Below are positions 1 through 15,494 of a DNA stretch of 64,000 bases, piece after piece; the stretch's first letter is position 1, and each line of letters opens with the position of its first letter. The notes below the pieces were generated by a model. That model saw only the letters and a program-made list of their open reading frames with translations, did no database searches and was not told where the DNA came from. Where the stretch lies: contig OZ242351.1 of assembly GCA_965208675.1 (NCBI GenBank), positions 2,464,001 to 2,528,000 on the forward strand. The letters run 5' to 3'. Made by a program: the position numbers and the translations under genes. The stretch is from Candidatus Poribacteria bacterium. GTDB taxonomy: Bacteria; Poribacteria; WGA-4E; PCPOR2b.

Positions 1-700
1 TCGCCGGTGCCAAGCGGATGTGTAACGGATTTCAGGCAAGTTCGCACAGGTCTCGCGTATCTGCCATAGCAACCGTGGCTGTATTTTACCGTCCGATAGA
101 CGGTTGTTAATGCCGTTGGCGTGCCCAAACCGAACTCAATTTTACTGATATGCCGCGTCAAATTCGTGTTATCTATCCGGACATCATAGTAGAATTTCAG
201 TATCCGTCCGAGCGAATCTTCCACCGCGACGAGCCGGGGATATTTAGGAGCGCTAGTGCCTTGATAGCGTGTCTCAGGTGCGTTCTCATAATGGAGTGTA
301 AGTTTGTTGCCGTTCGGGTCTAAAATCTCTTTCAACACATACCGCGCGTAACGATCGGTGACAAGTTGCTCAAACGTGTATTTGATACCGTGCTTGGTTG
401 TGTAGATAAATGCGCCAGCCTGTGTGCCTGACTGCACTAACTTCAAAGTGGCGCGCACCCCGGCTTTAGGGGTTAATTTTATGTTAGGTTTTCTGCCAGT
501 TCCCGTAAAGGTATGTTTCGCGCCGCTGCCGGTGGTAATTGATACGATCTGCAGTTTGTAAGCTCTACTCCCGTAATGCCACGCCCCACCAGTGTATATA
601 TCCCATTGATAGGAATGAGACCAATCGTGTCCGATATAACTGGCGCCTTGATACCAATTACGAGAGATGCCGTTGTAAATGTAATTCCGCGTAAATTCAA
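1..700. repeat. 700-bp direct repeat, copy 1 (copy 2 at 9500..10199)
   Basis: No mismatch seen by eye at offset 9499; shadow ORFs 479..700 and 9978..10199 translate identically. Confidence 0.95.
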
Positions 701-887
701 GCCCCAATCCGCGCCCCGGCACAGTCAAATCGGTCTCCGAAAAAACGAGCTGAAAAGAAATCATATTGACCATGCTGTCCATCTCTTGCGGGTAATTCGG
801 CACGGGACTTCCGAACTGGCTGGGGGCGGTGTTAGAAAAAGCGAATAGCATCAAAGTTATTAACAGATAGAAACAGATTTGCTTCAT
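1..887 (-). CDS. Second RHS/YD-repeat protein, 5' part only (runs off the left edge); not in the ORF track
   Basis: ATG at 887 with RBS AGGAGGA (896-902). Reads MKQICFYLLITLMLFAFSNTAPSQFGSPVPNYPQEMDSMVNMISFQLVFSETDLTVPGRGLGLEFTRNY..., collinear and in frame with the N-terminus of 5434..10389. Confidence 0.9.
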   Translation of the reverse strand, partial: MKQICFYLLITLMLFAFSNTAPSQFGSPVPNYPQEMDSMVNMISFQLVFSETDLTVPGRGLGLEFTRNYIYNGISRNWYQGASYIGHDWSHSYQWDIYTGGAWHYGSRAYKLQIVSITTGSGAKHTFTGTGRKPNIKLTPKAGVRATLKLVQSGTQAGAFIYTTKHGIKYTFEQLVTDRYARYVLKEILDPNGNKLTLHYENAPETRYQGTSAPKYPRLVAVEDSLGRILKFYYDVRIDNTNLTRHISKIEFGLGTPTALTTVYRTVKYSHGCYGRYARPVRTCLKSVTHPLGTG

Positions 888-905
888 TGTGTGTGTCCTC
901 CTGAG

Positions 906-1751
906 TTATTGACTTGTTTTGCCGTATAATTGATGAATCCATGTGGATTTGTCGAGCGCTTGTTTGGCTTCGGCGTCTCTTTTGTGTTCCTTTAGGCAGA
1001 GAGCGCGTAGACCTAGGAAGCCCGACATTTCTTCTGCCGGTGATAGCGATTTCAAAAAGCGGTTGGCTTGTTCTTCTGCTTCGGTGAATGGGTGCGGCCA
1101 CTTGCGGTAATACGAATCCGGATAAGGATTCCACCCTCGCCCTGTCGCCTCAATGTTGAAACGTCCATTTTCCGACTCCCACCGCGCAAAGAGATGAGCT
1201 TTAGCGCGTACCAACTTTAACGGGTAGCCTAAGCGTCTACCGATGGCAACAACCAAGACAGGCATCGAGGCGCAAGTTCCCATGGGACGCTGAGATAACA
1301 GCCCATGAAGGAACAAATCTTTTGAATCGGCAAAAAACCGCGTCGATTTAAGGTCGTCCAATGCGCCAGTCTCAATCAGTTCGGAATTGTATTTGACCCC
1401 CATATCCTGCGCTAAGACCGTCACCATCATCTCTATCTGGTAATATGCCAGTGAGTTGTTGTAATAGCCCTTATCTCGATGAAATAGATGTTGGTAGCGT
1501 TCGGTTTCCGACTCAATCCGCCGCACCCATTCATCGAGTTTCGCTAAAGCGGCCGGAATATCCAATGCTTCAGCGCCGGGCAGCCCCTGCGCACAAACCA
1601 TGTTGATGTAGGCAATATCAAACTCTGGCAGTGCCGTTTCCAGTTCTTTTTCTGTTATAGCAAGTAACTTTTCAACCGATAGCGGCTCGGCAAATTGCGC
1701 TGAGCATAGCGCAGGCATCAAATGGAGAATTAGCACAGAGATTTTTGGCAT
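906..1751 (-). CDS. Secreted transglutaminase-like (SirB1/Transglut_core2-type) protein
   Basis: Signal-peptide-like N-terminus; FLHGLL...GTCASMPVLVVAIGRRLGYPLKLV..KAHLFARWE...FNIEAT gives a Cys/His/Glu arrangement. Confidence 0.7.
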   Translation of the reverse strand: MPKISVLILHLMPALCSAQFAEPLSVEKLLAITEKELETALPEFDIAYINMVCAQGLPGAEALDIPAALAKLDEWVRRIESETERYQHLFHRDKGYYNNSLAYYQIEMMVTVLAQDMGVKYNSELIETGALDDLKSTRFFADSKDLFLHGLLSQRPMGTCASMPVLVVAIGRRLGYPLKLVRAKAHLFARWESENGRFNIEATGRGWNPYPDSYYRKWPHPFTEAEEQANRFLKSLSPAEEMSGFLGLRALCLKEHKRDAEAKQALDKSTWIHQLYGKTSQ

Positions 1752-1811
1752 GAGAATAAAAACAGCAAATTGAAAAGGAGGAAAAAGACAGCGGCGAGTG
1801 TTGTGAAAAAT

Positions 1812-2579
1812 TTACTCGCTCGCCGTTTGGAAGCGAATCACAATCGGGCCGTCCTCAAGCCCTCTGCCTCTATCTCCACCGATGTTATAAAGGTCTAACA
1901 GATGGATTTCATATTCATGACCCGGCAAAAGCCAATCGTCTTCGCTTGCAGGCAACAGGGTAGCAATGTCTTGATCGCTTGCCCAATCAATTATCCAATT
2001 CAGCCTCATTTGACCGCTGTAAACTTCAATCGGGGATCGTTGGATGTCAATAAAAGTGTTAAAAGTAATCCGTATCCCTTCTCGGTTCAACTGATCGGCA
2101 TTAGCATCAGTTTGCTTATGACTTATATTTGCTTCCTGAATCGCTGGTAAGGGCCTCGAAACATGGTAAGCGCCCAGGGTCACATCAAGCGTATCTCCAT
2201 GCTGGACACCGGGTTCGTCTTCGTAGACTATCCTCAAGGTCACATCCTTTTCAGGATTAAAGCCGTCTTGACTATCCCACACCTCTAGTCGGTTGGTTTC
2301 CAGCAGCCAAATCGTCGCCGCCGGTTTTTGATTTGGTCTAGCGTCTACCTCATTGATGCTAACCTGTCGGACAGGCTTGTCAAAGACAAGCTCTATTGTA
2401 TCCGAATGCGAAATTATCTCACGTCCATTTAGTGGAAGGATGCTGACAACCAACTCTTGAAGGCCTCGATAGTAATAAGCACTAGCTTCTATGAGCCGCG
2501 CTGGTTGTATTTCCTCATCCGCTGAGCAGCCAATGAGCAAACACAGCACGGCACACAGCATCACACTGTTCAACAGCAT
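1812..2579 (-). CDS. Lipoprotein with Ig-like (Big_5/SbsA-type) domains; paralog of the adjacent gene
   Basis: Lipobox LLIGC; shares TIELVFDKPV, DTLDVTLGAY, SEDDWLLPG and VIRFQTA with 2592..3389. Confidence 0.75.
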   Translation of the reverse strand: MLLNSVMLCAVLCLLIGCSADEEIQPARLIEASAYYYRGLQELVVSILPLNGREIISHSDTIELVFDKPVRQVSINEVDARPNQKPAATIWLLETNRLEVWDSQDGFNPEKDVTLRIVYEDEPGVQHGDTLDVTLGAYHVSRPLPAIQEANISHKQTDANADQLNREGIRITFNTFIDIQRSPIEVYSGQMRLNWIIDWASDQDIATLLPASEDDWLLPGHEYEIHLLDLYNIGGDRGRGLEDGPIVIRFQTASE

Positions 2580-2591
2580 GTCATAATTCCT

Positions 2592-3389
2592 TTAATCCGC
2601 CGTCTGGAAGCGAATCACAAGCGGCTTCTCCTCAAGCCTCTCTCCCCTTGTGCCCTTGTAATCATAAAAATCGACCACATGAACTTCATAATCCTGCCCC
2701 GGCAGTAACCAATCATCTTCGCTTTCAGGCATCAGGATGACCGTGTGAACCGCCCCATTATCATCGTCCAATGTCCAACGATAAATACTCCAATCAAGCA
2801 TTTCTTGACCGCTGTAAACTTCAATCTTGGTTCGGTATGGGCGGTTATCCATCTCCTTATCAAAACCAATCTTTATCCCTTCTTGGTTCAACCGATTGGC
2901 ATCTACATCAACCTCACCACTCCATGGATCCAAGAACACAATGAGCGGGGGGAACACGTCAAGACTGTATGCGCCTAAAGTTACATCCAGCGTGTCTTTA
3001 TGGATGCCAGCTTCATCTTCATAGATTACCATCAAGGTTACATCTCGTTCCGGATTCCATCCAATTTGGAGATTCCACACATCTTCTAGGTGGTTGCTTT
3101 CCAGTTTCCAAATTGTCGTCGGCGGCATTTCATCGGGTTGGGCTTTAGCACTATAATTGATGCTTACTTCCAGAACAGGTTTATCAAAGACAAGCTCAAT
3201 TGTTGTAGTAGTCCCAATTACGCCAGGAAGCGGAAATGAACTCTGTGGAGTATCCTCATCATAGCCACGGGCTTCTATCAACTGCGCCGGTTGTAATTCC
3301 TCATCCGCTGAGCAGCCAATGAGCAAGCACAATCCACAAAACAGCATTGAACCTCTCGTCAGTGCATCGTAAAACCTTGCTAACTTCAT
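2592..3389 (-). CDS. Lipoprotein with Ig-like domains; candidate immunity/accessory protein
   Basis: Start moved to ATG 3389 (MKLARF) because AGGAGG lies at 3399-3404; lipobox LLIGC; paralogous to 1812..2579. Confidence 0.75.
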   Translation of the reverse strand: MKLARFYDALTRGSMLFCGLCLLIGCSADEELQPAQLIEARGYDEDTPQSSFPLPGVIGTTTTIELVFDKPVLEVSINYSAKAQPDEMPPTTIWKLESNHLEDVWNLQIGWNPERDVTLMVIYEDEAGIHKDTLDVTLGAYSLDVFPPLIVFLDPWSGEVDVDANRLNQEGIKIGFDKEMDNRPYRTKIEVYSGQEMLDWSIYRWTLDDDNGAVHTVILMPESEDDWLLPGQDYEVHVVDFYDYKGTRGERLEEKPLVIRFQTAD

Positions 3390-3391
3390 TG

Positions 3392-4192
3392 CTATAGACC
3401 TCCTTTGATACCCCCCAATGTTGTTGCTTTGAGGATGGGTGCACGAATCACATTCAGTAATGGTTCGTATCGCCATGACGAAGCTATATCCACTAGGTCT
3501 TGTCTGCTAAGTGTATCCTCTGATGCCGCCAAATCGCCATAATGACTAGCGTACCACTTGAAAGCCCCACCTGCGGGAAATGCTCCAGCAGCGTGCATGG
3601 CGTAGTAATGTTCTTGAACGGCTTTTGCCATCTGTTCTCGATTCAGTTGCACGTAATATAGTTGATAAAGAGTATGTTCATATCTATCATCAGGGTTTGG
3701 AGAGCCAGACCCAACAGGATCCTGATAGCCCGTCATATCTTGCCAAGCGTGAGTAAGTTCATGCACGAAAGTGCTTAGGCGCGATGGATGAAGATTGACG
3801 TTATCTATATCTATTGCATAGAGCACTATTATACGGTCTCGGAACAGCCACTCCCCGTCTTTACCTGGGCTTTCATCGTGCGTTGCGAATCGTACCGCCG
3901 TGACAAAGTTCATCAGTATATTCGCATTGCTTTCTCCAAAAGAGAAGTTTGCAGCTCCTCGGAGCGTTTCGAGTTCTGCGTTAGTTGCTAATCTGTTAAG
4001 TAACCCCGTCGGATCAATAAACTTCAGCGGATTATTATAGGCATAAATGTACCAGTTGATGCCGTCTCCGGCGGGGTCACGCTGTAAAAAGTGTCCGGCG
4101 TGGGGGTGGTAGTAGGCTTCTAAAGCGGGTGCAGCGATAAGGGTCAGCAGCAGTATTGCAAGGGTAAATCTAAAAACTGTGTTCATAGTCAT
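3392..4192 (-). CDS. Signal peptide + minimal RHS-core tail + HExxH zinc metallopeptidase-like domain ('mini-RHS')
   Basis: Hydrophobic signal ending ALEA, then YYHPHAGHFLQRDPAGDGINWYIYAYNNPLKFIDPTG, then FVHELTHAWQ. Confidence 0.85.
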   Translation of the reverse strand: MTMNTVFRFTLAILLLTLIAAPALEAYYHPHAGHFLQRDPAGDGINWYIYAYNNPLKFIDPTGLLNRLATNAELETLRGAANFSFGESNANILMNFVTAVRFATHDESPGKDGEWLFRDRIIVLYAIDIDNVNLHPSRLSTFVHELTHAWQDMTGYQDPVGSGSPNPDDRYEHTLYQLYYVQLNREQMAKAVQEHYYAMHAAGAFPAGGAFKWYASHYGDLAASEDTLSRQDLVDIASSWRYEPLLNVIRAPILKATTLGGIKGGL

Positions 4193-5307
4193 TGCGTGTT
4201 CGGGCGTTTTATTCGATTGCTCCTTTTTGTTGAGAACTCGATTTCGGCATCGACTTGATTCCCCGCAACATCCATAAAATCCCTGAGTTGAATCGTATAG
4301 CGCTGACCTTCCACCAGTTCTTTGCCTTCCGGAGGGGTTATGGTCACTGAATGACTGCTCCTTTCAACATTCCAACCCAGCGGTTCACTATCATCGGAAC
4401 TGATTGTAATCTCGCCCCCGCCAGTTGAACGGTTGAATTTGAAAGTAATGCCATCGGTATTTAATGAATCGAGAGCATCGGGATCCCTAAATCGCTGCCT
4501 ATCTTTGATGGTTTGGGATATGATACCGAAGGGCGGCAATGCTTCAAGCGCTTTTGCCGCTTCGCCAATGCGACACGATTGGAGGCGCTTCAAGACCTCA
4601 GCCGCTTCTTCTCGCGTCCTCCAATCTGGATGGGATAATCCTTCAGCTAATCTAGGAACCACCGCTGGGGGGAGAGTCCCCACTTTCAGCTCCGGCTTAT
4701 TGCACGCATATTCAAAACCATATCCATAAGCGATAGCGGTACCGAAACTAAGCGCCCAATTGCTACTGTGCAACGCCTCGATTAAGGCGGAACGCCCGTG
4801 ATGTCCCATACGCGGGAGCAAAACTTGGGCTGCATCTGGGGAAAAGATGGGAGAACCATAATAGAATAACCGGATAAAACCCGCAATTTCTTCCGGTGTG
4901 AGTTCTTCGCGCCCTGTGTAACCTATGAAGCCACCTATCGCTGAATAACGCATAACCGAATCTTCAGCTTTTAGGGCTTTAACCAACCCACGGACGATGT
5001 GTTTGTAATACGGGGTGCTCGTGTCCTTGTCTAGAAGCTGATGAAACTGATCTCTCATATCATGCAGTGTATTCAAAGCCCACGCCTGCACCCCGGTATC
5101 TTCGTGGTCTAATGCCGCAATCAATGCCGGCACTGCTGCTTCACCTATTTCGGTGAGGGCTTTACTTGCACTGTCTTGGACATCCACATCCGCATGTTCA
5201 AATTGCTGAATCAACGATGCGATGTTCTCATTGTGAGCATGAGACACTATGCTTGCCATGCTCACCAAATATAGACAGATAAGCAGGGTTCGTTTGTGTT
5301 TGTTCAC
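4189..5307 (-). CDS. Secreted HEAT/PBS-lyase repeat protein with C-terminal Ig-like domain
   Basis: GTG start with AGGAGG RBS; signal ending SHA; HEAT motifs (AAVPALIAALDHED..VQ, LAEGLSHPDWRTREEAAEVL); C-terminal ...LVEGQRYTIQLRDFMDVAGN. Confidence 0.8.
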   Translation of the reverse strand: MNKHKRTLLICLYLVSMASIVSHAHNENIASLIQQFEHADVDVQDSASKALTEIGEAAVPALIAALDHEDTGVQAWALNTLHDMRDQFHQLLDKDTSTPYYKHIVRGLVKALKAEDSVMRYSAIGGFIGYTGREELTPEEIAGFIRLFYYGSPIFSPDAAQVLLPRMGHHGRSALIEALHSSNWALSFGTAIAYGYGFEYACNKPELKVGTLPPAVVPRLAEGLSHPDWRTREEAAEVLKRLQSCRIGEAAKALEALPPFGIISQTIKDRQRFRDPDALDSLNTDGITFKFNRSTGGGEITISSDDSEPLGWNVERSSHSVTITPPEGKELVEGQRYTIQLRDFMDVAGNQVDAEIEFSTKRSNRIKRPNTQ

Positions 5308-5433
5308 GGTATATCCTCCTGTATTTTTAAGGTATGATTATCAGACTAAAGCCACTGAACTTTCAGTGTGGAGAACCGTCTGATACAACACCCCATCGAC
5401 GTTTTATCTCAGTTAAAACAGTTGGGCGCCCGA

Positions 5434-8400
5434 TTATCTAGGGAAATAGTTGGAGGCCGTAGCTGCTAAATTACGAAGTTGTTCGGTATAGTCCGCAGAC
5501 CCATACGTGTTGAGTTGTCCTTCTGTAAAGCGACTATAACCAACATACCAGCGGCCAAGTTTACTTTTGCCCACTACCCAATCCATATTTTCTATTGCGA
5601 ACCGGGCGCCTAAATCGAAAGCCATCAGTTCCATGACATAAAGATAAAAATCTTTATCATAACTAGAGCTGCCATGCAGAAATACACTAGGATACATGAT
5701 AAAGTTATGGACATGAGAAAATTCATGAACCAGATCCGTTGTTAATCTAATAAGTTGGCCCACAAATTGGGGATTCGGTGTGTTTTTAACATTTACCGTA
5801 ATACCGCTGTTGTGGAAGTCAGTTGGATCAGTATTAGCATCCGATGCGAGGTTTTTATCAAACTTTATGTTCACTTGCACATCACTTTCAATTATATCGG
5901 TCAGAATACCACCCGCAGCGCCACTTCCAGCAATTCCTGTGCCGTTTATTCCCCCTGTGAATATTGCATCCCAAACCAGACCACCGTCGTCTGTCAAACC
6001 CGCCGGCCTTATATAGTTACCATCAGCATCTGTTTTAGGGACGCTTCTTATTTCGGTGCCGCCCGGCAGGACGATATACATCCCCGTCGGATCGACAAAT
6101 CCAAGCGGGTTATTATACGCATAGGCGTACCAATTCACGCCTTGACCGGCAGGGTCGCGCTGATTAAACGTGCCGGTGTAGGGGTCATAGTATCTCGCTG
6201 CGAAGTAGTAGAGTTTTACATCGCTCTCATACTCTTTGCCCGTGAATTTGCGCGGGTTGTCGCTGGTGCCGACTTCGGAGCGAACTGCGCCGAACACGTC
6301 GTACTCATACCGCACAAGCACATTCTTGTTATCGTCCGTTAAGACGATGTTGCTGCCCAAAGCGTTGGTGTGGTGGTATTCATAGCGTCCCATCTGATTG
6401 TTCGACAATTTAGTTATCTCAGCGTCGCTTAGCGCAGCGTCGTAGATGGATACATCGTCGAGATAACCGTTGAGGTGGTGGTTAGTCGCATCATAAAATC
6501 CCATCCACAACGCCTTGGTCGTTGCCGCCAACGACGCTGTTGATGCCGTTGAAGCCGTGTCTTTGGTGCCGCCGATAAAGACGCGGAGTTCGCTGCCGTC
6601 ATACCGAGCCGCCACATGCTTCCATGTGTTTAAGGGGATGGTCGTTGCACTGGTGACGGTCTTGGTTGTCCCGCTGAACAGCACCTCGAACTGAACCGCG
6701 CCGGTGCTAGTTATCCAGAGCCGATACCCGTTAGAGGCGTTTGCCTTTTTGACCAGATTCCCGCTCGCCACAGTGGACCGCTTCACCCAACAACTGATGG
6801 TTAGTGTATTGCCAACAAGGTCTAAGGCATCACTGTCTGCGACTTTTACGACATCGTTAGTGCCGTCAAAAAGGAGGCTACCCCCGTTTTCAGTGCTCCA
6901 AGCAGGCTTTTTGTTTTCAGTGCCGCCGCCCAGCGTGCCGTTCTGGCTGCCGTCAACGTCATGCGCCACAGTGCCGGTGCCTTCATCAAAGTGCCAATGC
7001 GCAACGGCATTGTGTTTCCGGCGATATACAACGCCGTTGCCGCCATAGAGATAGCTGGCCGTGATGTTCTTGCTTGAATCCAATTCTAGCACCGGCATCA
7101 AGCCGTCGTAAAGAAAATACCTTGTGCCCTGGCTGTCCGAGACTTTCACCCGTTTGCCCCCGCCGTCGTAGGCGTATGTGAGCGTCTGTGTCACCGTGTT
7201 GTTTCGGGTCTTCTGAATCTGTTTCAACTGCGAACCGAATCCGTAGGTAAATGCGTCCGAATCCGTGCCTTCGCTCCGTTGCGTCAGCTTCCCTTCAGCA
7301 TCGTAGGTGTAATTCATCGTCGAGAAGTCGGTATCTTCAGGCACTAGTGAACGGTAGGTCAATTGGTTGCTGTTGGTGGCAACCGTGTAGGTCGTCGTGC
7401 CATCAACGCTGCTCACCTGTGTGAGCCGGTTGCCGGACTTGTCGTAGGTGTAGCTGACGGTCTCGTTCCCGTAGTTGGCGCTAGTCAAGCGTGAGATATT
7501 ATCGTAACCGAATGTGAACGTCTTGCTTGACCCGCCGGCGCCGGTATCGTCTCTCACCAACTGCGTCACATTCGATTTGTCGTCGTAGGTGTAGGTTAAG
7601 GAACTGAGCGTAGTGGAAGCGTCCTTCTTGTACGTCAGCGTGCTTAAGCGGTTGACGTTATCAAGCGTTCGATGCGCGGTGATGCCGTTTGGAACCGTGA
7701 CTTTCTTCAACGCCCCGATGTCGAAGTAACCGTAGCTTTCGGTCTTGTTAGCAAGCACGTCCTTAACCGTCAGCAGCCGGTTGGCTTCGTCGTAGGTATA
7801 CTGGACATCGTATAACTTTGTGGTTGTGCTGCCGGTAGTTGGATTGACGTACATGCGCGTCCGCATCGAAGAATCGTCGTATTCGTAGACGGTCTTATAA
7901 CCCAAGAGCGAATCGGTGCGGTTCTTGATGCGGTTGAGTTGGTCGTGCGTGAAGGTATAGGTGTAAGTATTCGCGCCGTCGTTGGTCTTTTGGGTAAGCA
8001 CGTTGTCGCCCAAGTCGTAGGTGTAGTCTACGACCTCGCCCGTCTTGTAGCTGACTTTCGAGAGGCGGTTGAGGTTGTCGTAGGTATTGCTGACGGCGGG
8101 GCTGGTTTCAGTGCCGGTTTGGCTCGTCCACGCCTTCGTAACCTGATTCAGGGTATTGTAGCGCGTCTCCACCCAATCGCCGTCGGGCAAGGTCTGCTTA
8201 GTCACTCTGCCGAGTTCATCGACGGTATAGTTGGTTATCAAGCCGCGGGGGTCTTTGGTCTGGGAAATGTCGCCGGCAATGTTGTAGACCGTTTCGGCTG
8301 TAGCGTATGGAGTCGTCCAGTTATCCTTGAAGCTGTGGGCTTTGACGGCGCGGTTCATGGCGTCGTATTCGGTTTTGGTCTGGGCTATTAGCGTGCCGGT

Positions 8401-10389
8401 CTGCCAGTTGTTCTTGCGGACTTGGGTCTGGGTGACGTTGCCGTTCTTGTCGTAGGTTGGGATGGTGTGCATGTTATCGGCAACGCGCCGGGTGTATTTT
8501 AGCTTTCTATCTTTCCAGTAGGCGTATTCGGTGCGTCTGCCCTGCGCGTCAATGTCTGCCGTTTTCAACCCGCGGTTGACATCCCACTCGGATTTGGTCT
8601 TGATGATATGGTCTGCACCGTTTACTGTGACGGTGGTCTTGACCTCGATTGGATACGTGTGATGGGTCGCATCATAGACAGTCTCCACAACCTTCTCTTG
8701 CGTTGTCCCCGGCATGAAGGTGGTCTTGGTTCGGTTGCCGTAGGAGTCGTAGGTGTGCTTGGTGATGATGTCGTGGTCGACGGCGTGGGGCTGTGTGCCG
8801 GTATTGGCTTTGCTGCGCTGCTCGGTGAGATTTCCCTTCGAGTCGTAGGTGAACGTCGTCTTATGCCCCATCGGGTCTATCTGCCAGAGGGGGCGGTTAA
8901 ACTTTGTCTCGTAGTCCGCCGTCCATTTGCGGAAAACAGAGCCATTCGTGGTATCTATCTGTTCCCAATTCGTGGCGTTGCCCATCTGACTGTTGTGGGT
9001 GGCATTTGTGCCCGCATAGTAGATTTTGTACAGAAAATCCAGGCTGGAAGAAGCACCGCCATGTTGCGATCTAATAAGATTTCTATTGGAGTATACCCAA
9101 CGCGAATCGGCATAAGACGCCCGCGGCATTTTCACACCTTTTACATATATCCAGCGTCTGCTTCCCAAACCGTGGTGTTTAGCAATGACGGCGCTTGAGG
9201 TGACAGTATAGCCGGCGTAATGCCGGTCGCTTCCGCTTTCTATGGCATGACGGCGGTTGTTATGTCTACTAGTAATAAAATAGTACCGGCGATATACTAT
9301 GTCCCCGTGAATGCTGCCTGCCTTGGGAAGATTTCTGACGTACACAGTTGACACCTGGAGGTGCTTGAGTCCATAGTTATATAAATAGCTAATTGTGGTT
9401 CGAGAGCCCAACGGAGAGACGATTGCTGAGAGATAGCGATAGTTATTCTTGTAGTAGGTTTCGTATTCGTATTGAGTCTTTAACTCACTGCCGCGGGGGT
9501 CGCCGGTGCCAAGCGGATGTGTAACGGATTTCAGGCAAGTTCGCACAGGTCTCGCGTATCTGCCATAGCAACCGTGGCTGTATTTTACCGTCCGATAGAC
9601 GGTTGTTAATGCCGTTGGCGTGCCCAAACCGAACTCAATTTTACTGATATGCCGCGTCAAATTCGTGTTATCTATCCGGACATCATAGTAGAATTTCAGT
9701 ATCCGTCCGAGCGAATCTTCCACCGCGACGAGCCGGGGATATTTAGGAGCGCTAGTGCCTTGATAGCGTGTCTCAGGTGCGTTCTCATAATGGAGTGTAA
9801 GTTTGTTGCCGTTCGGGTCTAAAATCTCTTTCAACACATACCGCGCGTAACGATCGGTGACAAGTTGCTCAAACGTGTATTTGATACCGTGCTTGGTTGT
9901 GTAGATAAATGCGCCAGCCTGTGTGCCTGACTGCACTAACTTCAAAGTGGCGCGCACCCCGGCTTTAGGGGTTAATTTTATGTTAGGTTTTCTGCCAGTT
10001 CCCGTAAAGGTATGTTTCGCGCCGCTGCCGGTGGTAATTGATACGATCTGCAGTTTGTAAGCTCTACTCCCGTAATGCCACGCCCCACCAGTGTATATAT
10101 CCCATTGATAGGAATGAGACCAATCGTGTCCGATATAACTGGCGCCTTGATACCAATTACGAGAGATGCCGTTGTAAATGTAATTCCGCGTAAATTCAAT
10201 CCCTAATCCGCGCCCCGGAACAACCAAATCGGTCTCCGAGTGAATGCTCCCAAAGGTAATCATATTGACCATGCCGTCCATCTCTTGCGGGTGACGCGGC
10301 ACCGGACTCCCGAACTGGCTTACGGCGGCGCTAGAGAAAGCGAATACCATCAGACTTATTAACATACAAAAACAGAAATTTCTTTTCAT
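5434..10389 (-). CDS. RHS/YD-repeat polymorphic toxin-like protein (1651 aa): signal peptide, DUF6531-like N-domain, YD repeats, inserted LamG domain, RHS core, HExxH C-terminal tip
   Basis: ETDLVVPGRGLGIEFTRNY...DWSHSY; many YD repeats; core FTGKEYE...YYFAARYYDP...QRDPAG...NNPLGFVDPTG; tip contains LVHEFSHVH. Confidence 0.95.
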   Translation of the reverse strand: MKRNFCFCMLISLMVFAFSSAAVSQFGSPVPRHPQEMDGMVNMITFGSIHSETDLVVPGRGLGIEFTRNYIYNGISRNWYQGASYIGHDWSHSYQWDIYTGGAWHYGSRAYKLQIVSITTGSGAKHTFTGTGRKPNIKLTPKAGVRATLKLVQSGTQAGAFIYTTKHGIKYTFEQLVTDRYARYVLKEILDPNGNKLTLHYENAPETRYQGTSAPKYPRLVAVEDSLGRILKFYYDVRIDNTNLTRHISKIEFGLGTPTALTTVYRTVKYSHGCYGRYARPVRTCLKSVTHPLGTGDPRGSELKTQYEYETYYKNNYRYLSAIVSPLGSRTTISYLYNYGLKHLQVSTVYVRNLPKAGSIHGDIVYRRYYFITSRHNNRRHAIESGSDRHYAGYTVTSSAVIAKHHGLGSRRWIYVKGVKMPRASYADSRWVYSNRNLIRSQHGGASSSLDFLYKIYYAGTNATHNSQMGNATNWEQIDTTNGSVFRKWTADYETKFNRPLWQIDPMGHKTTFTYDSKGNLTEQRSKANTGTQPHAVDHDIITKHTYDSYGNRTKTTFMPGTTQEKVVETVYDATHHTYPIEVKTTVTVNGADHIIKTKSEWDVNRGLKTADIDAQGRRTEYAYWKDRKLKYTRRVADNMHTIPTYDKNGNVTQTQVRKNNWQTGTLIAQTKTEYDAMNRAVKAHSFKDNWTTPYATAETVYNIAGDISQTKDPRGLITNYTVDELGRVTKQTLPDGDWVETRYNTLNQVTKAWTSQTGTETSPAVSNTYDNLNRLSKVSYKTGEVVDYTYDLGDNVLTQKTNDGANTYTYTFTHDQLNRIKNRTDSLLGYKTVYEYDDSSMRTRMYVNPTTGSTTTKLYDVQYTYDEANRLLTVKDVLANKTESYGYFDIGALKKVTVPNGITAHRTLDNVNRLSTLTYKKDASTTLSSLTYTYDDKSNVTQLVRDDTGAGGSSKTFTFGYDNISRLTSANYGNETVSYTYDKSGNRLTQVSSVDGTTTYTVATNSNQLTYRSLVPEDTDFSTMNYTYDAEGKLTQRSEGTDSDAFTYGFGSQLKQIQKTRNNTVTQTLTYAYDGGGKRVKVSDSQGTRYFLYDGLMPVLELDSSKNITASYLYGGNGVVYRRKHNAVAHWHFDEGTGTVAHDVDGSQNGTLGGGTENKKPAWSTENGGSLLFDGTNDVVKVADSDALDLVGNTLTISCWVKRSTVASGNLVKKANASNGYRLWITSTGAVQFEVLFSGTTKTVTSATTIPLNTWKHVAARYDGSELRVFIGGTKDTASTASTASLAATTKALWMGFYDATNHHLNGYLDDVSIYDAALSDAEITKLSNNQMGRYEYHHTNALGSNIVLTDDNKNVLVRYEYDVFGAVRSEVGTSDNPRKFTGKEYESDVKLYYFAARYYDPYTGTFNQRDPAGQGVNWYAYAYNNPLGFVDPTGMYIVLPGGTEIRSVPKTDADGNYIRPAGLTDDGGLVWDAIFTGGINGTGIAGSGAAGGILTDIIESDVQVNIKFDKNLASDANTDPTDFHNSGITVNVKNTPNPQFVGQLIRLTTDLVHEFSHVHNFIMYPSVFLHGSSSYDKDFYLYVMELMAFDLGARFAIENMDWVVGKSKLGRWYVGYSRFTEGQLNTYGSADYTEQLRNLAATASNYFPR
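9500..10199. repeat. 700-bp direct repeat, copy 2 (copy 1 at 1..700)
   Basis: Matches the window start at offset 9499. Confidence 0.95.
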
Positions 10390-10409
10390 GATACTTTCCT
10401 CCTTTAGAT

Positions 10410-10478
10410 GCAGTGCCAGTAGCCAGTGGTCAGTGACCAGAATGAAGCTTTTACTGGCGACTGGGCACTAGCCACTGC
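10410..10478. repeat. Heptamer-based (CAGTRRY)n inverted repeat, intergenic
   Basis: GCAGTGC-CAGTAGC-CAGTGGT-CAGTGAC-CAG ... CTGGCGA-CTGGGCA-CTAGCCA-CTGC. Confidence 0.8.
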
Positions 10479-10479
10479 T

Positions 10480-11616
10480 TTATTCCGGTATCGGGGGACT
10501 TGTGTCACCGTTTGCGTCGTTGGCTCCCGTTGTTCCAACCGGTCCTATGTCTGCGCCCCGATCCTCAAGTATTGATAGATACTCCTTCGCTTTTTCCGAA
10601 TCGCCTCCGGCTTCAGACGTCTGCACAGCATGCCACAACGATTCGTCAATCAAACCGTCAAACCGTGCCTTTGCCGCCGCCAATGCCTCAGCACGCTCTT
10701 TCGCGCCGTCAAACAGAGCGGAGAACACATTCGCAAACACCGTATCCTTACGCGTTATACCCGCCGCTTCCGCGTATAACCGAGAAGCACTAAGCTGCCC
10801 ATCGGAGTTGTAGAAGTCTTCTTCCTTCGTCCACTTCGCCTTGGTCGCTAATTCCTGTACCTGCATCACATTGGCTTCAATGGCTAAAAGGTGTGTTGGG
10901 TAGTCTATCAGGAATTGCGCGTAGGATACCGTGTTGTCGGTGGTGAAGGCGGTCCGCGTCAGTTCTAATGCGTCGAACCACGTCTGACCGGCGTTGTGGT
11001 TGGAGATGCACCACACGCTCAACTTCACCGCTCCATCGGGCGGCAAAGCACTGACGGTGACTGTCCCCCAGTCGTTTTCGCCGGCGGGCAGCATAGGTGA
11101 GTCAGACGTGCTTATCATATCTCCATCTTTATTGAACCAGGCTATCAAGAGGTAGACTTCACCGTTGTTGCCTAGGGTCTTGACCTTCCCGGTCAGGGTG
11201 TACCACTGAAAACCGTCTCTCTCAACTGTAAGCTCGTCGCTTGACCATCGACCGTAGTTCCAGCGCGAGCTGTGGATGGAGATGCTGTGGCTGCCGGCGG
11301 ATTTGACCTCGGAATCCCAGATGTAGTTGTCACCGACAAACAAGGTCAGGGGCGTCCAGTTGTTCGGACCTGGGAGTTCCTCATTGTTGTTGCTTTCATC
11401 AAACGACGGGTTAGCGAGCGCGACAGTGACGGCGGCTGCAGGCTGCTCGTCATCACCAGGCCCCACACCAGGGCCGCCGCCGGTTCCGCCAGTACCGCCG
11501 GTTTCACCAGTGCCCCCGGTGTCGTCGTTTCCGCCGGGGATAGGTGACGCGTGGAGAAATGAAGTGGATAACAACAGGAAAAGAATCGTAATTGCGCTTA
11601 TGAAATACCTTGACAT
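10480..11616 (-). CDS. Secreted protein with Gly-rich linker, CBM4/9-like beta-sandwich and helical C-terminus
   Basis: Start moved to ATG 11616 (MSRYFIS; RBS TAGGAGG 11624-11630); signal ending LHA; NPSFDE...W...YTLTGKVKT...WFDALEL pattern typical of galactose-binding-like folds. Confidence 0.7.
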   Translation of the reverse strand: MSRYFISAITILFLLLSTSFLHASPIPGGNDDTGGTGETGGTGGTGGGPGVGPGDDEQPAAAVTVALANPSFDESNNNEELPGPNNWTPLTLFVGDNYIWDSEVKSAGSHSISIHSSRWNYGRWSSDELTVERDGFQWYTLTGKVKTLGNNGEVYLLIAWFNKDGDMISTSDSPMLPAGENDWGTVTVSALPPDGAVKLSVWCISNHNAGQTWFDALELTRTAFTTDNTVSYAQFLIDYPTHLLAIEANVMQVQELATKAKWTKEEDFYNSDGQLSASRLYAEAAGITRKDTVFANVFSALFDGAKERAEALAAAKARFDGLIDESLWHAVQTSEAGGDSEKAKEYLSILEDRGADIGPVGTTGANDANGDTSPPIPE

Positions 11617-11711
11617 GTTTTGACCTCCTAAGAGTTTGTTTGATAAAGTCATTTGATACGTTTGCGTATCAAAAATGTGGAAGCTATTCAACATCGCTAA
11701 GAACTTGTTTG

Positions 11712-11743
11712 AAAAGTCCTTCCTTTCCCGACGAAAAGGGACT
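11712..11743 (-). terminator. Terminator-like hairpin in the leader of the RHS operon
   Basis: Minus strand AGTCC-CTTTTC-GTCG-GGAAAG-GAA-GGACT followed by TTT. Confidence 0.4.
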
Positions 11744-11855
11744 GTAGGCATCGCGTAACCCTGCTGCCGTCTTCTGCCGCGGGAAGGATTAAAAGATGCA
11801 TCAATCTCTAGAGCCAGCCGGATTAGAGAAAGACAATCTGCCTCCCCTGTACTAT

Positions 11856-11872
11856 GGCAAAAACCGTGCCAA
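11856..11872 (-). promoter_or_regulatory. Sigma54 (-24/-12) promoter
   Basis: Minus strand TTGGCACGGTTTTTGCC: TGGCACG and TTGC with exact GG-N10-GC spacing. Confidence 0.8.
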
Positions 11873-11991
11873 TGGTCGGTTTAAGGAGGAGTTCAACTCT
11901 GTAGAGACGGATAAATTCAGTGGTAGCCTAGGTTCGATGGATATGCGAAGGAGTCAGAAGGACGGTAGCGTGACAGGGTGCGGGTTGAAAA

Positions 11992-12096
11992 AGTCCCATA
12001 TTGGGACTGACAAGATTGGCAGAAATAGCGGATAAGCCTGTAATGACGCGGGATGGGGGCGTTTTCCCAATATGGGAATTTGTCCCATATTGGGAC
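11992..12096. promoter_or_regulatory. Three palindromic sites, candidate enhancer-binding-protein upstream activating sequences
   Basis: AGTCCCA-TAT-TGGGACT (11992-12008), TTCCCA-ATA-TGGGAA (12064-12078), GTCCCA-TAT-TGGGAC (12082-12096); 120-225 bp upstream of the sigma54 site. Confidence 0.75.
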
Positions 12097-12578: not shown

Positions 12579-13466
12579 TTACTCGCCGCTCTCCTCTACT
12601 TTCAATTTCCACAACTTCAGCTTTTGTTGCTGTGTGCTGCGCATAACAACGACCTGCTGCGGTCCAATGGAGTGGATAGTTGCGCCAGCAATAACGTCTC
12701 CCACACGCGCCGTTTGTGCCCCAAATATGGCAATCGGGTTCGCTTCGTCCCACAGGATTCCTGTCAGTTGCGGTAAAGTCGACTCGGTCACCGAGATTTT
12801 GGCTGTGATCGATTGCGGTGCAGTTGCGTCAAAAACAAACGGGTTGCGTTTGACGGAAAATCTTCGTATTGCTGGCATCTCAATCAGTGGCGAGTGACTA
12901 GTGGAGAGTGGAGAGTTAAGGAATTGCTCTCCACTCATCACTCTCCACTCTCCACTGTCTCTTTTGTGCATCGGCGAAAGTGTCAGACTCATCCACAAGG
13001 TGTCTTTTTGCATTTTTCGTCGATAGAGCCGCACTTCCTCAATTCGTACCGTCGGGACTATCCGTTCCACAACTGACAAAAAAGTTATAAATCCGTTATA
13101 GTTACCTGAAAGCGTCAGTTGAATCGGGAGCGCGCCATAATCGCCGCGATGCCATTCTCGGAGTTCCTCAACGCCGACGAGGAATGGGGATAACCTATCG
13201 GAAATTTTTCCTAGCTCCGGCAAAAGTGCATCGGGTTCACGCCAGAGGAGTTGCTTTTCTATTCGATGGCGTTTCTCCTCTGCATCGGCGACCTGTTTCA
13301 TCCACTTTTGGTGGACAGTAGAAGCAGTGTCAGTGGTCTGTGATTTGTGACCAGTAGAAGACAAGTCCTTCTCTGTCGCCGTGGCACGCTTCCATTGGGC
13401 GAGTTGTACCACTAGCGCGGCAAACAGTATGAAGACTAGAAAGTAGAGTAATCGTATCATAATCAA
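12579..13466 (-). CDS. PilO/GspM-like inner-membrane protein with PilP/GspC-like C-terminal segment
   Basis: N-terminal TM; LPIQLTLSGNYNGFITFLSVVERI..VRIEEVRL; KRNPF...QLTGILWDEANPIAIF...VGDVIAGATIHSI. Confidence 0.7.
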   Translation of the reverse strand: MIMIRLLYFLVFILFAALVVQLAQWKRATATEKDLSSTGHKSQTTDTASTVHQKWMKQVADAEEKRHRIEKQLLWREPDALLPELGKISDRLSPFLVGVEELREWHRGDYGALPIQLTLSGNYNGFITFLSVVERIVPTVRIEEVRLYRRKMQKDTLWMSLTLSPMHKRDSGEWRVMSGEQFLNSPLSTSHSPLIEMPAIRRFSVKRNPFVFDATAPQSITAKISVTESTLPQLTGILWDEANPIAIFGAQTARVGDVIAGATIHSIGPQQVVVMRSTQQQKLKLWKLKVEESGE

Positions 13467-13492
13467 AAGGCAGTGGCGAGTGGAGAGTTAAA

Positions 13493-15475
13493 ACTATCGC
13501 CTGAGATTTCTATGAAGAACTATCGTACTCAACTATTCGTTCGATCGATCGTTTCCTTCTGTTACTGTAGGAGGGACATCCCTGTCCCGACCATCGGGGC
13601 TAGGAAGCTAAGCAGGACTATCGCCCTCTCTATTCGGTCGGTTGATCCTACAGATATTGTCATTCAACTGCTTCTAACGAGGTGAGAGCTAATGTAAACT
13701 CCAGCCATCGCTTCCCGCCAATCAAGGTTTGTTCGGTCTCGACCTGTCGGACAGATGAGAATTCCGGTTGTGTGACTAAAGCGGCTCGGAACGCATTTAT
13801 CTCCGATTGAGCCGGTGCAACCCCGATAACCAATAGTGCGCGGCGGGCATCAAAGGTGACATCCGCTTTTGTCGCTTGAGATGGTAAAACAGTGCGTATC
13901 TCTGTTAGCCGCACAGTAGCGGGACACCGATTGGAAATTTGCACCAAACGCTCCGCCAACGTCGGGAAACGACGCTCGCCCCAAGCGAGATGCGCGAGCG
14001 CGTCTTCGATTTCGGTGTGACGTTCTTGCAGCGATTTGGTTTCCGTCTGCAATGTTTTTTCATGTGCGCGGGCACGACGAAGCGTATCAATACGCTCGCT
14101 CTTCGATTCGATTGTATCAAAGAGTTTCACGTTAGCACCCAACAGCAGGAGCAGCGCGGCTATCGGAATCATCCGCATCAGCAACCGCTTTCGCCGCAAT
14201 TTTCGTTTTACGGCTCTTTCGGCAAGCACCGGGGACAGCAGATTCAGGATAAAACCAGAGCCAGCGGTCAGTAACCTGTTGCCAGTGAAGGACGATTTTG
14301 CTGACCACCGGTCACTGGAAATTGGCCTCTGAATTGGTTTCAATAACGCCGTATGCCAATCGAAGGTGGATTCCGCAACCTCCGCAACCCCCAACTGTGA
14401 AGCAGTGCCAGTGGCTAGTGACCAGTAGCCAGCATTAGAAGCACTACTCTCACTGTTCACTGGCGCATGACCACTGGCACTGCCTTTGCTACTTTCGGCA
14501 GCATGGAGCAGGACAATCCTTTTCAGCGGTGTTCCCGTTGGGTTAGGACAGTTGGCTAGGCTATGCCGAACCGTTCGCCACAGTTGATCGGCGTTTTCGA
14601 TAACAAAGCTGCGCCCGAAGCAGATTTGAGCTTCCCTTTCTGGTCGGTCGGTTAATCCCGCCTCGACGACCACTAAATCGCACAGCTGTCCGTCGATATG
14701 TACGCCACATACCCGTTCCGAACCGTCCCAATGCGAAAGAAGTTGGTTGGCTAACACGACTGACTGCGGGGCTAGGTACGCCAATTCCACTCCCGAAAGC
14801 TGTGCTAAGACCGAAACTAACTTTCTCTTAAGCATCCAACCGACCAACAGCGTCGTCGGCGACAGTAACTGAAAATCGTAAGCGGCTGAATTCAAAGCGA
14901 TGGGAATGTGATTCTCGTTCTCCAGTGCGGTCTCAATCGCCACTTTTTGCAGTTCAACCGTGGCTTGGGGAACGGCATCCGACATTTGAATCCATTTGAG
15001 CAGCACCTCGTTGCTGGATATGGAGGCAAATACTGGCTGCGACTTTATGTCCGCAAGGAGGTAACGTACGGTTTCTGCGAGGGCGGGATGAGACAGCGGG
15101 TCAACGACTTGTCCCCTAAGACTATCGCACTCACTATCCGTTCGCTTGATCCCACCGTGGTAAGGGGGAGAACTCTCTGATGCCGGTAACGGTCGTGAAT
15201 CTTCCCGGACACACGTCCAGCTCCCGCCGCGCCAAACCATATCCGCTCGGCGGACTGCCGCGTGAGTTATCTGCAAACAGGTACAGCTTTTCATCTTTTA
15301 GAAAAAGCGTTGGGTTTCGAAATCCTGTTCAACCCAACTTACAATCTGTCGCCCCGCTGGGGCTTAGGTGGGTGGGGTTGCGGTATTTCTATACACCTTC
15401 CGCCCCGCTGGGGCTTTTGGCTTGATTGTTGGGTTTCGCAGAAAACTATCGCCCTCGTTATTCACTCGGTTGATC
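13493..15475 (+). repeat. Dispersed ~31-nt element ACTATCGCMCTCNCTATTCGNTCGGTTGATC (four copies plus one partial)
   Basis: Copies at 13519-13550, 13617-13647, 15121-15151 and 15445-15475; partial at 13493-13516. Confidence 0.85.
13660..15294 (-). CDS. PilM/PilN (GspL)-like fused protein
   Basis: N-terminal PilM-like region, LNLL motif before a single TM, coiled coil, then PATVRLTEI...VIGVA...INAFRAALVTQPEFSSV...EFTL (PilN-like). Confidence 0.7.
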   Translation of the reverse strand: MKSCTCLQITHAAVRRADMVWRGGSWTCVREDSRPLPASESSPPYHGGIKRTDSECDSLRGQVVDPLSHPALAETVRYLLADIKSQPVFASISSNEVLLKWIQMSDAVPQATVELQKVAIETALENENHIPIALNSAAYDFQLLSPTTLLVGWMLKRKLVSVLAQLSGVELAYLAPQSVVLANQLLSHWDGSERVCGVHIDGQLCDLVVVEAGLTDRPEREAQICFGRSFVIENADQLWRTVRHSLANCPNPTGTPLKRIVLLHAAESSKGSASGHAPVNSESSASNAGYWSLATGTASQLGVAEVAESTFDWHTALLKPIQRPISSDRWSAKSSFTGNRLLTAGSGFILNLLSPVLAERAVKRKLRRKRLLMRMIPIAALLLLLGANVKLFDTIESKSERIDTLRRARAHEKTLQTETKSLQERHTEIEDALAHLAWGERRFPTLAERLVQISNRCPATVRLTEIRTVLPSQATKADVTFDARRALLVIGVAPAQSEINAFRAALVTQPEFSSVRQVETEQTLIGGKRWLEFTLALTSLEAVE

Positions 15476-15494
15476 GCTCGACCCAATCTACAGT
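15309..15494. repeat. Cluster of REP-like palindromes between the secretin and pilMN-like genes
   Basis: GTTGGGTT..AACCCAAC hairpins and two copies of CGCCCCGCTGGGGCTT (15350-15365, 15401-15416). Confidence 0.7.

Follow-up and report, generated by a model that had tools for sequence, protein, structure and literature searches.

A probable family of cage-independent, putatively Sec-exported polymorphic toxins derived from orphan RHS cassettes in Candidatus Poribacteria

The prevailing view of RHS toxins is that they are cage-plus-cargo devices, with orphan cassettes as silent spares that carry no trafficking signals. Full-length RHS proteins with a signal for the general secretory (Sec) pathway are known, e.g., WapA-type proteins. 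The orphan rhs-CT cassettes of enterobacteria are described as encoding no trafficking modules (PMC4436062), and a Salmonella orphan is described as being expressed independently (PMC7043789). Sec-dependent polymorphic toxins with lineage-specific constant N-termini have also been reported, the examples given by Zhang et al. 2012 (PMC3482391) including MafB/MAFB-N of Neisseria, Microscilla-N and APD1/APD2. In this study, we analysed a stretch of 64,000 nucleotides (nt) from the genome of a Candidatus Poribacteria bacterium (GenBank assembly GCA_965208675.1, contig OZ242351.1, positions 2,464,001 to 2,528,000; hereafter the window, and its genome G000), and focused on one gene in it, mini-RHS, in which a signal-like N-terminus is joined directly to the end of an RHS core and a variable tip. 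We consider it probable that mini-RHS is a lineage-restricted, Sec-exported and cage-independent polymorphic toxin derived from orphan RHS cassettes. It would represent a third state of RHS toxins, an orphan-type cassette turned into an independent, multi-copy polymorphic toxin with predicted Sec export.

The mini-RHS open reading frame (ORF) occupies 3392..4192 on the minus strand and is intact over 266 amino acids (aa), in the order signal-like segment (residues 1-26), RHS core end (27-64, hereafter the half-core) and a 202-aa tip with an HExxH motif. Its ATG (4192-4190) and the TGA (4191-4189) of the upstream gene, which encodes a 372-aa protein with HEAT repeats and a Big_5 domain, overlap as ATGA (4189-4192), which bears out the original prediction of an intact ORF joined directly to the gene before it. 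On the other side, 2 nt separate its stop codon TAG (3394-3392) from the ATG (3389) of the next gene. The parts of the gene are the following.

4115..4192, minus strand: predicted Sec-type signal peptide, residues 1-26 (hydropathy, sequence, and the same layout in 43/43 relatives)
4001..4114, minus strand: half-core, residues 27-64, with the last YD unit, both DPxG motifs and PxxxxDPxGL (TIGR03696 match, 17 invariant positions, and the ratio of nonsynonymous to synonymous polymorphism, pN/pS)
3395..4000, minus strand: variable toxin tip, residues 65-266, predicted zincin-like metallopeptidase (motif, AlphaFold2 model, structural neighbours)
3392..3394, minus strand: stop codon TAG of mini-RHS
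4193..4230, minus strand: conserved leader travelling with the cassette, here the 3' end of the upstream gene with the tail ...RIKRPNTQ (DNA alignment of six copies)

Compared with the orphan rhs-CT/rhsI pairs as described in PMC4436062, mini-RHS is alike in lying downstream of an rhs gene of full length and of the immunity gene that goes with it, in consisting of a core piece with PxxxxDPxGL and a tip followed by a probable immunity gene, and in having tips in common with full-length RHS proteins. It is unlike them in having its own ATG and a conserved Sec signal-like N-terminus joined to the core piece at a fixed point, and in being multi-copy, with eight tip classes, and present also away from and without intact rhs genes. 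The position and the order of core, tip and immunity gene are those of a classical orphan, whereas the signal-like N-terminus with its own ATG is not. With the MAFB-N, Microscilla-N and APD1/APD2 toxins, as outlined in PMC3482391, mini-RHS shares a signal, a short lineage-restricted constant region, a C-terminal toxin that is polymorphic, the presence of several paralogs in one genome and neighbouring immunity genes, which are here candidates; however, its constant region is no novel globular domain but what is left of the RHS autoprotease plug, 38 residues that retain both catalytic aspartates. The 1651-aa Sec-signal RHS protein of the window has, like mini-RHS, an N-terminal signal, the same core-end motif and the same tip families, but mini-RHS is without its YD-repeat cage (about 1370 residues are missing), so that the toxin of mini-RHS would not be encapsulated.

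Residues 1-26 (MTMNTVFR-FTLAILLLTLIAA-PALEA) are laid out like a Sec signal with its n-, h- and c-regions, with R8, the one Arg of this segment, in the n-region, an h-region of 13 residues (F9-A21) and a c-region from P22 to A26, and their Kyte-Doolittle maximum over 11-mers is 2.97. By inspection, the features of a Sec signal cut by signal peptidase I (SPase I) are present, namely a positive n-region, a hydrophobic h-region, small residues at -3 and -1 and no lipobox Cys, while AlphaFold2 places the N-terminus as a detached helix, a single hydrophobic helix at residues 3-27. Cleavage is predicted after A26 (LEA|YY), and Y27-Y28 align with the YY of ARYYDP in the 1651-aa RHS, as expected from the earlier proposal that the apparent cleavage falls exactly where this motif begins. 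In 43/43 relatives, A, V, S, L or I stands at -3 and A at -1 directly before YY. From these sequence features and their conservation among relatives, the N-terminus is putatively a cleavable Sec signal peptide.

The half-core matched profile positions 37-76 of the 76 positions of TIGR03696 (Rhs_assc_core, NCBIfam) at 42.4 bits against a cut-off of 32.5 (E-value 7e-11), far above chance level. Residues 39 and 60 are the first of DPAG and DPTG, respectively, while P55-L64 (PLKFIDPTGL) fits PxxxxDPxGL. The RHS aspartyl autoprotease is defined, in the account of PMC8765631, by two catalytic Asp in DPxG motifs about 21-22 residues apart; the dyad of RhsA is D1324 and D1346, and the protein is cut after W1350 in PxxxxDPxG[W/L/F]. 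By this comparison D39 and D60 correspond to the dyad, and cleavage would be expected at L64. Both Asp are among 17 half-core positions that are invariant in 44 sequences, i.e., the 43 relatives and the window protein. The C-terminal plug of solved RHS proteins is given as about 95 residues, deeply embedded in the barrel (PMC8636562), of which mini-RHS keeps just the last 38. No RHS/YD-repeat match was found in mini-RHS (Pfam PF05593, NCBIfam TIGR01643), only 26 residues precede the core-end motif, and one degenerate last YD unit is left (YYHPHAGHF versus YYDPxxGRF in relatives). A26 occupies the place of the conserved Arg of RHS, an Arg that is absent in all 44 family members examined. Thus the retention of both DPxG motifs (QRDPAG and FIDPTG), the missing YD-repeat cage and the missing Arg, all of which had been pointed out before, were each found again.

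Among six copies of the cassette, pN/pS of the half-core was 0.12-0.52 in 15 pairwise comparisons, the pairs being paralogs and not independent. The half-core DNA of the copies is 65-74% identical to RHS cores of the same genome, with longest identical runs of 8-14 nt, so that the amino-acid conservation does not stem from recent gene conversion. Judging from these values, the half-core is under purifying selection on the protein.

In the tip, HELTH lies at residues 144-148 (nt 3749-3763), and an alignment of 14 tips shows no change at the H, E, H and Q of HExxHxWQ. E186, in EQMAxAVQ and 38 residues past the second His, is nearly invariant and is a candidate for the third zinc ligand. An AlphaFold2 model built on a 30-row alignment reached a mean predicted local distance difference test score (pLDDT) of 83.4, with 88-98 over blocks 71-250 and about 52-54, a low confidence, in the half-core; an earlier model on a 9-row alignment, with a mean pLDDT of 35, was unusable. 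The best structural neighbour by VIA-align was the VgrG2b effector domain 6h56_B (Z 9.3, root-mean-square deviation 3.9, 135 aligned residues, 22% identity), followed by the catalytic domain of anthrax lethal factor (Z 8.2, root-mean-square deviation 4.6, 152 aligned) and then Pro-Pro endopeptidases, nearly all of the 50 neighbours listed being zincins. On the modelled fold the tip is confidently assigned as a zincin metallopeptidase of VgrG2b/DUF4157-like type, and with the invariant HExxH the peptidase tip of the original prediction is upheld. The C-terminal domain of VgrG2b is described as a toxin in the periplasm against which a cognate immunity protein protects, and VgrG2b orthologs as classed under DUF4157 (PMC6899460). 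While the tip shares the zincin fold with HExxH with VgrG2b of Pseudomonas aeruginosa (PDB 6H56), identity is only 22% over 135 residues and PF13699 (DUF4157/eCIS_core) was not matched by the window tip, the relative P0016 giving a sub-threshold match (E-value 0.26). Furthermore, VgrG2b is reported to be delivered by a secretion system of type VI (T6SS), whereas mini-RHS has a Sec signal-like N-terminus and the T6SS sheath family PF05943 was not matched in the G000 genome (96.4% complete). Weak matches to DUF6782, M78 and M91 were all under cut-offs, phmmer against PDB gave only matches with E-values of at least 0.13, to chitinase-like proteins, ESM Atlas scores were at most 0.89, and Foldseek against PDB gave no match at E<=0.001.

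A first search for proteins of similar length found seven, of which six (P0001-P0004, P0006 and P0007) have an ordinary core fragment (KLYYFAARYYDP...) and none has a signal, a result that by itself suggested a classical orphan. A cassette profile was then searched in the genomes of 61 relatives and in all 176 genomes of the phylum, and full-length matches were obtained at seven places in 3/176 genomes, three in G000, three in G002 (same genus, a sister species) and one in G007 (another genus); in all remaining matches, which are to RHS proteins or classical orphans, the alignment starts at profile position 25-28. The two paralogs in G000 (L002 and L003, ORFs of 279 aa and 275 aa at C1 3.079 and 3.083 Mb) are 69-71% identical to the window ORF over residues 1-64 and continue into other HExxH tips, and the signal of the G007 copy, MPMLKRLSILLIILTLLTTSAQA, has diverged yet still places AQA immediately ahead of YYDP. 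When 1.84 billion representatives were searched with a profile, 52,634 matched at E<=0.001. Among the best 150, 34 were read, picked for a match start within about 45 residues of the protein start, and 15 of the 150 carry the cassette at residue 1, fourteen with the two known signal types and one (P0110) divergent. P0008, P0076 and P0103 were dropped as spurious, being Ig-repeat adhesins that match via a repeated short YDPxTGTLTPxxPLGEG.

For proteins of 124-2000 aa, 305 matches were found at E<=1e-10. The top 43 clusters (126-287 aa), defined by scores of at least 102 bits with the next at 85 or lower, all have a signal and YYDP, with AQA, ADA, VQA, SQA, LEA, LDA or IEA before YY; the row-by-row reading covered these 43, ahead of at least 77 lower rows at <=85 bits. 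The tips of the 44 sequences fall into eight unrelated BLAST clusters, i.e., paralogs and strains combine a constant N-terminal region with unrelated C-terminal toxins, as polymorphic toxins do. Several top relatives lie on one long contig, so that single genomes hold two to four copies. With seven copies in three genomes and 43/43 clusters sharing an own start and a signal-like N-terminus, the conclusion that mini-RHS is not a mere fragment is supported, and the proposed profile count of genes with a signal, YY and two DPxG motifs did find homologs of the same architecture. The few relatives with a source name are annotated as Candidatus Poribacteria, and the sequencing runs in which the stretch occurs come from sponge metagenomes. 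Outside this lineage the architecture was seen only in P0110, a single metagenomic fragment of 116 aa; a scan of species genomes with P0110 gave 38 loci, mostly in Planctomycetota and Phycisphaerae, and 0/38 had a signal directly before the core end. A whole-protein scan of metagenome contigs gave three loci, with half-core matches only, and a full-text literature search, whose coverage excludes supplements, found no paper describing the mini-RHS architecture.

In the DNA of six cassette copies, homology sets in about 35-45 nt ahead of the ATG and stops directly behind the DPTG codons. In G002, the syntenic ortholog is identical to the window copy for 47 residues, diverges inside the half-core and then has an unrelated tip. 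In four other runs, contigs extend over the upstream gene and the cassette and become unlike the window at 4001, 4005 and 4021; the tip bins 3614-3915 had no coverage in the four runs, which is not taken as evidence, and this comparison uses only the covered parts and the loose contig ends. The window tip also occurs on full-length RHS proteins (P0155-P0158, 1444-1691 aa), and the tip of L003 is 54% identical to that of the 1651-aa RHS of the window. These comparisons indicate that tip exchange at the half-core joint happened in the past. On the other hand, the 114 nt of half-core in the window copy are 72-74% identical to the two RHS cores of G000, with a longest identical run of 12-14 nt, which makes present-day tip donation to the 1651-aa RHS unlikely. 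The suggestion that the core-like stretch serves as a donor for tip exchange thus stands for past events at this joint and is not supported for a current donor to that protein.

Several observations weigh against the reading of mini-RHS as an exported toxin, at least for the window copy. The window copy alone has H29 and H34, where 43/44 sequences have D and R, respectively. In its G002 ortholog, an in-frame stop closely follows the half-core and D60 is replaced by N, the 67-69-aa product of this ortholog is found on at least four contigs, and a shortened relative of 70 aa (P0010) exists; the broken ortholog and the shortened relative suggest that the window locus may be decaying. The window copy also has the location typical of a classical orphan, with a full-length RHS and the immunity gene of that RHS upstream of it, and no RNA run is among the sequencing runs listed for the stretch. 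A Shine-Dalgarno-like site is absent within 10 nt of the ATG, an AAGGAG being about 30 nt upstream. The putative signal peptide is read from sequence features and conservation, and pN/pS of the signal region (0.36-1.58 on few sites) is no proof of constraint. Moreover, the window tip matched no Pfam, NCBIfam or PDB sequence family above threshold, and a Sec-exported toxin would still need a way across the outer membrane or to its target. Within the family, the window copy may be either young or fading. In the G002 ortholog (L035 1480-1689 and 907-1479, minus strand), TAA stands where tip relatives have Gln, six codons past the half-core, and a GTG directly after it opens a 190-aa tip; this ortholog is either a pseudogene or a split gene.

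The alternative that survives best is that the window copy is a decaying orphan, the family perhaps being real and this gene inactive now. The replacements D29H and R34H, the stop and D60N in the ortholog, P0010 and the missing RNA run favour it. However, the ORF is intact over 266 aa, its tip aligns end to end with the tips of relatives at 54-60% identity, HExxHxWQ, the dyad aspartates and PxxxxDPxGL are retained, and the gene is tightly packed between the ATGA overlap upstream and the 2-nt spacer downstream, so we regard decay as unlikely. Less probable still, in our view, is a silent recombination cassette that donates its tip to full-length RHS genes via about 110 bp of core homology, its hydrophobic N-terminus being incidental. 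While the location in an rhs array, the same tips on both scaffolds, the crossover inside the half-core of the G002 ortholog and the classical model as set out in PMC4436062 would fit such a cassette, the low identity of the 114 nt and their short longest run do not, and it is the features of the signal, not its sequence, that are conserved in 43/43 relatives. In addition, the two G000 paralogs at 3.08 Mb sit away from any full-length RHS, and G007 (99% complete, one contig) has an intact mini-RHS and RHS only as frameshifted pieces.

It was also proposed that mini-RHS is loaded in trans, its half-core docking into or complementing an RHS cage after export and the cage delivering the tip. The half-core does correspond to a piece inside the cage in solved RHS proteins as reported in PMC8636562 and PMC8765631, the large RHS would also be exported by Sec, since it begins with a signal peptide of its own, and within the genus mini-RHS is found only where RHS genes exist (G000 and G002, with neither RHS nor mini-RHS in G001 and G003). 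The carrier genome G007 has no intact RHS, which leaves loading into a cage without support, and the half-core by itself is modelled with low confidence; this part of the original prediction was not supported, and we rate it as highly improbable. A membrane-anchored toxin, in which an uncleaved signal anchor tethers the peptidase to the inner membrane, is equally remote, because although the helix at residues 3-27 is single and its cleavage is only predicted, A/V/S/L/I at -3 and A at -1 before YY in 44/44 sequences, across two diverged signal types, form the pattern to be expected of a cleaved signal rather than of an anchor.

Under the preferred reading of mini-RHS as an exported cage-independent toxin, an orphan rhs-CT cassette most likely gained a signal peptide, and the family would have spread by duplication and tip replacement with crossovers inside the half-core. 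Translation would be coupled to the upstream gene; the protein would be exported by Sec and cut by signal peptidase after A26, giving a mature protein that starts with YY; and the metallopeptidase would act outside the cytoplasm, putatively on a periplasmic target, without an RHS cage, while secreted lipoprotein or HEAT proteins encoded adjacently would protect the producer. The half-core, maintained by selection at the protein level, would mark the joint for tip exchange. A more speculative view, which we hold to be doubtful, is that the 38-residue remnant is a functional cage-free module, acting after export either as a self-cleaving aspartyl pro-peptide or as a tag to an outer-membrane route, e.g., the secretin cluster described below. 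If true, the ends of RHS cores would serve as portable modules for processing or delivery, with a role beyond that of a cage lid.

Of the RHS core, mini-RHS keeps just the two-aspartate autoprotease motif, under purifying selection. It offers a natural minimal construct for asking whether the RHS autoprotease is active without the barrel and whether the core end has other roles. For sponge symbionts, in which interbacterial antagonism has been little studied, the family also adds an uncharacterised group of putatively secreted toxins of metallopeptidase type, together with repeat proteins that are candidates for immunity.

The genes around mini-RHS in the window are the following.

4189..5307, minus strand: 372-aa secreted HEAT-repeat and Big_5 protein (Pfam HEAT_2, E-value 5e-14, and Big_5)
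2592..3389, minus strand: 265-aa lipoprotein with lipobox LLIGC and Big_5-like domains (weak match), 2 nt past the toxin stop
1812..2579, minus strand: paralogous 255-aa lipoprotein with lipobox LLIGC (sequence)
5434..10389, minus strand: RHS (cage) of full length, 1651 aa, with a Sec signal, an inserted Laminin_G_3 domain and a tip containing HEFSH (Pfam, NCBIfam)
3..887, minus strand: 5' end of a second full-length RHS, with 98% DNA identity to the first over 4.3 kb

The 372-aa protein is probably the immunity protein of the 1651-aa RHS, and paralogs of it flank other mini-RHS copies. From its position and lipobox, the 265-aa lipoprotein is a candidate immunity protein for the window tip; a predicted complex of tip residues 65-266 with lipoprotein residues 27-265 scored 0.00, which counts neither way. 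At 4/4 loci read (the window, L002, L003 and G007), the gene after mini-RHS encodes a signal- or lipobox-bearing protein, and such secreted neighbours are consistent with a toxin acting in the periplasm or crossing it. In 29 family genomes, tip homologs are only 31-46% identical to the window tip and their downstream genes differ (beta-propeller-like, or a leucine-rich repeat lipoprotein).

A secretin cluster lies at 12579-17882 (minus strand, as the RHS locus), a short way upstream of that locus, and comprises a secretin of 795 aa (Secretin, STN, Secretin_N), a 544-aa gene without Pfam match and a PilO-like gene. It holds one of the two secretin genes found in the genome and could give the RHS and mini-RHS proteins, once exported by Sec, a way through the outer membrane; the 19 kb read around the G007 copy showed no cluster of this kind.

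The two full-length RHS genes of the window, of which the second extends to G000:C1:2459900, are alike up to the core end and differ in their tips. Being direct repeats that bracket the mini-RHS island, they could allow recombination to delete or amplify it. Laminin_G_3 (concanavalin-like) covers residues 1175-1325 of the 1651-aa RHS, shortly before the core end, and is precomputed on many RHS relatives of the lineage. A secreted transglutaminase-like (Transglut_core2) gene lies at 906-1751 (minus strand) directly upstream of the second RHS, and another (L002 632-1504, plus strand) lies upstream of the paralog L002 with an ATGA overlap. Inactive transglutaminase domains are described as fused after the signal peptide of RHS toxins in PMC3482391, whereas here the transglutaminase-like protein is encoded by a separate gene.

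The array around the G007 copy (L054, G007:C1:4860001-4879000) contains mini-RHS, an RHS remnant with a frameshift, a classical orphan lacking a signal (274 aa, with HELTH in its tip) and small lipoprotein pairs, so that classical and signal-bearing cassettes coexist in one array; it also holds a 239-aa gene that is SUKH-like by eye only. A promoter and terminator scan of 800-12000 in the window gave counts not above those in shuffles. Every cassette copy starts with M-x-M, and the true start may thus be the third codon. In the leader, 27 nt are missing in L003, and a small inverted repeat, GGGCG-AATAAAA-CGCCC, is present in 3/6 copies (L002, L007 and L024; about 1455-1500, plus strand).

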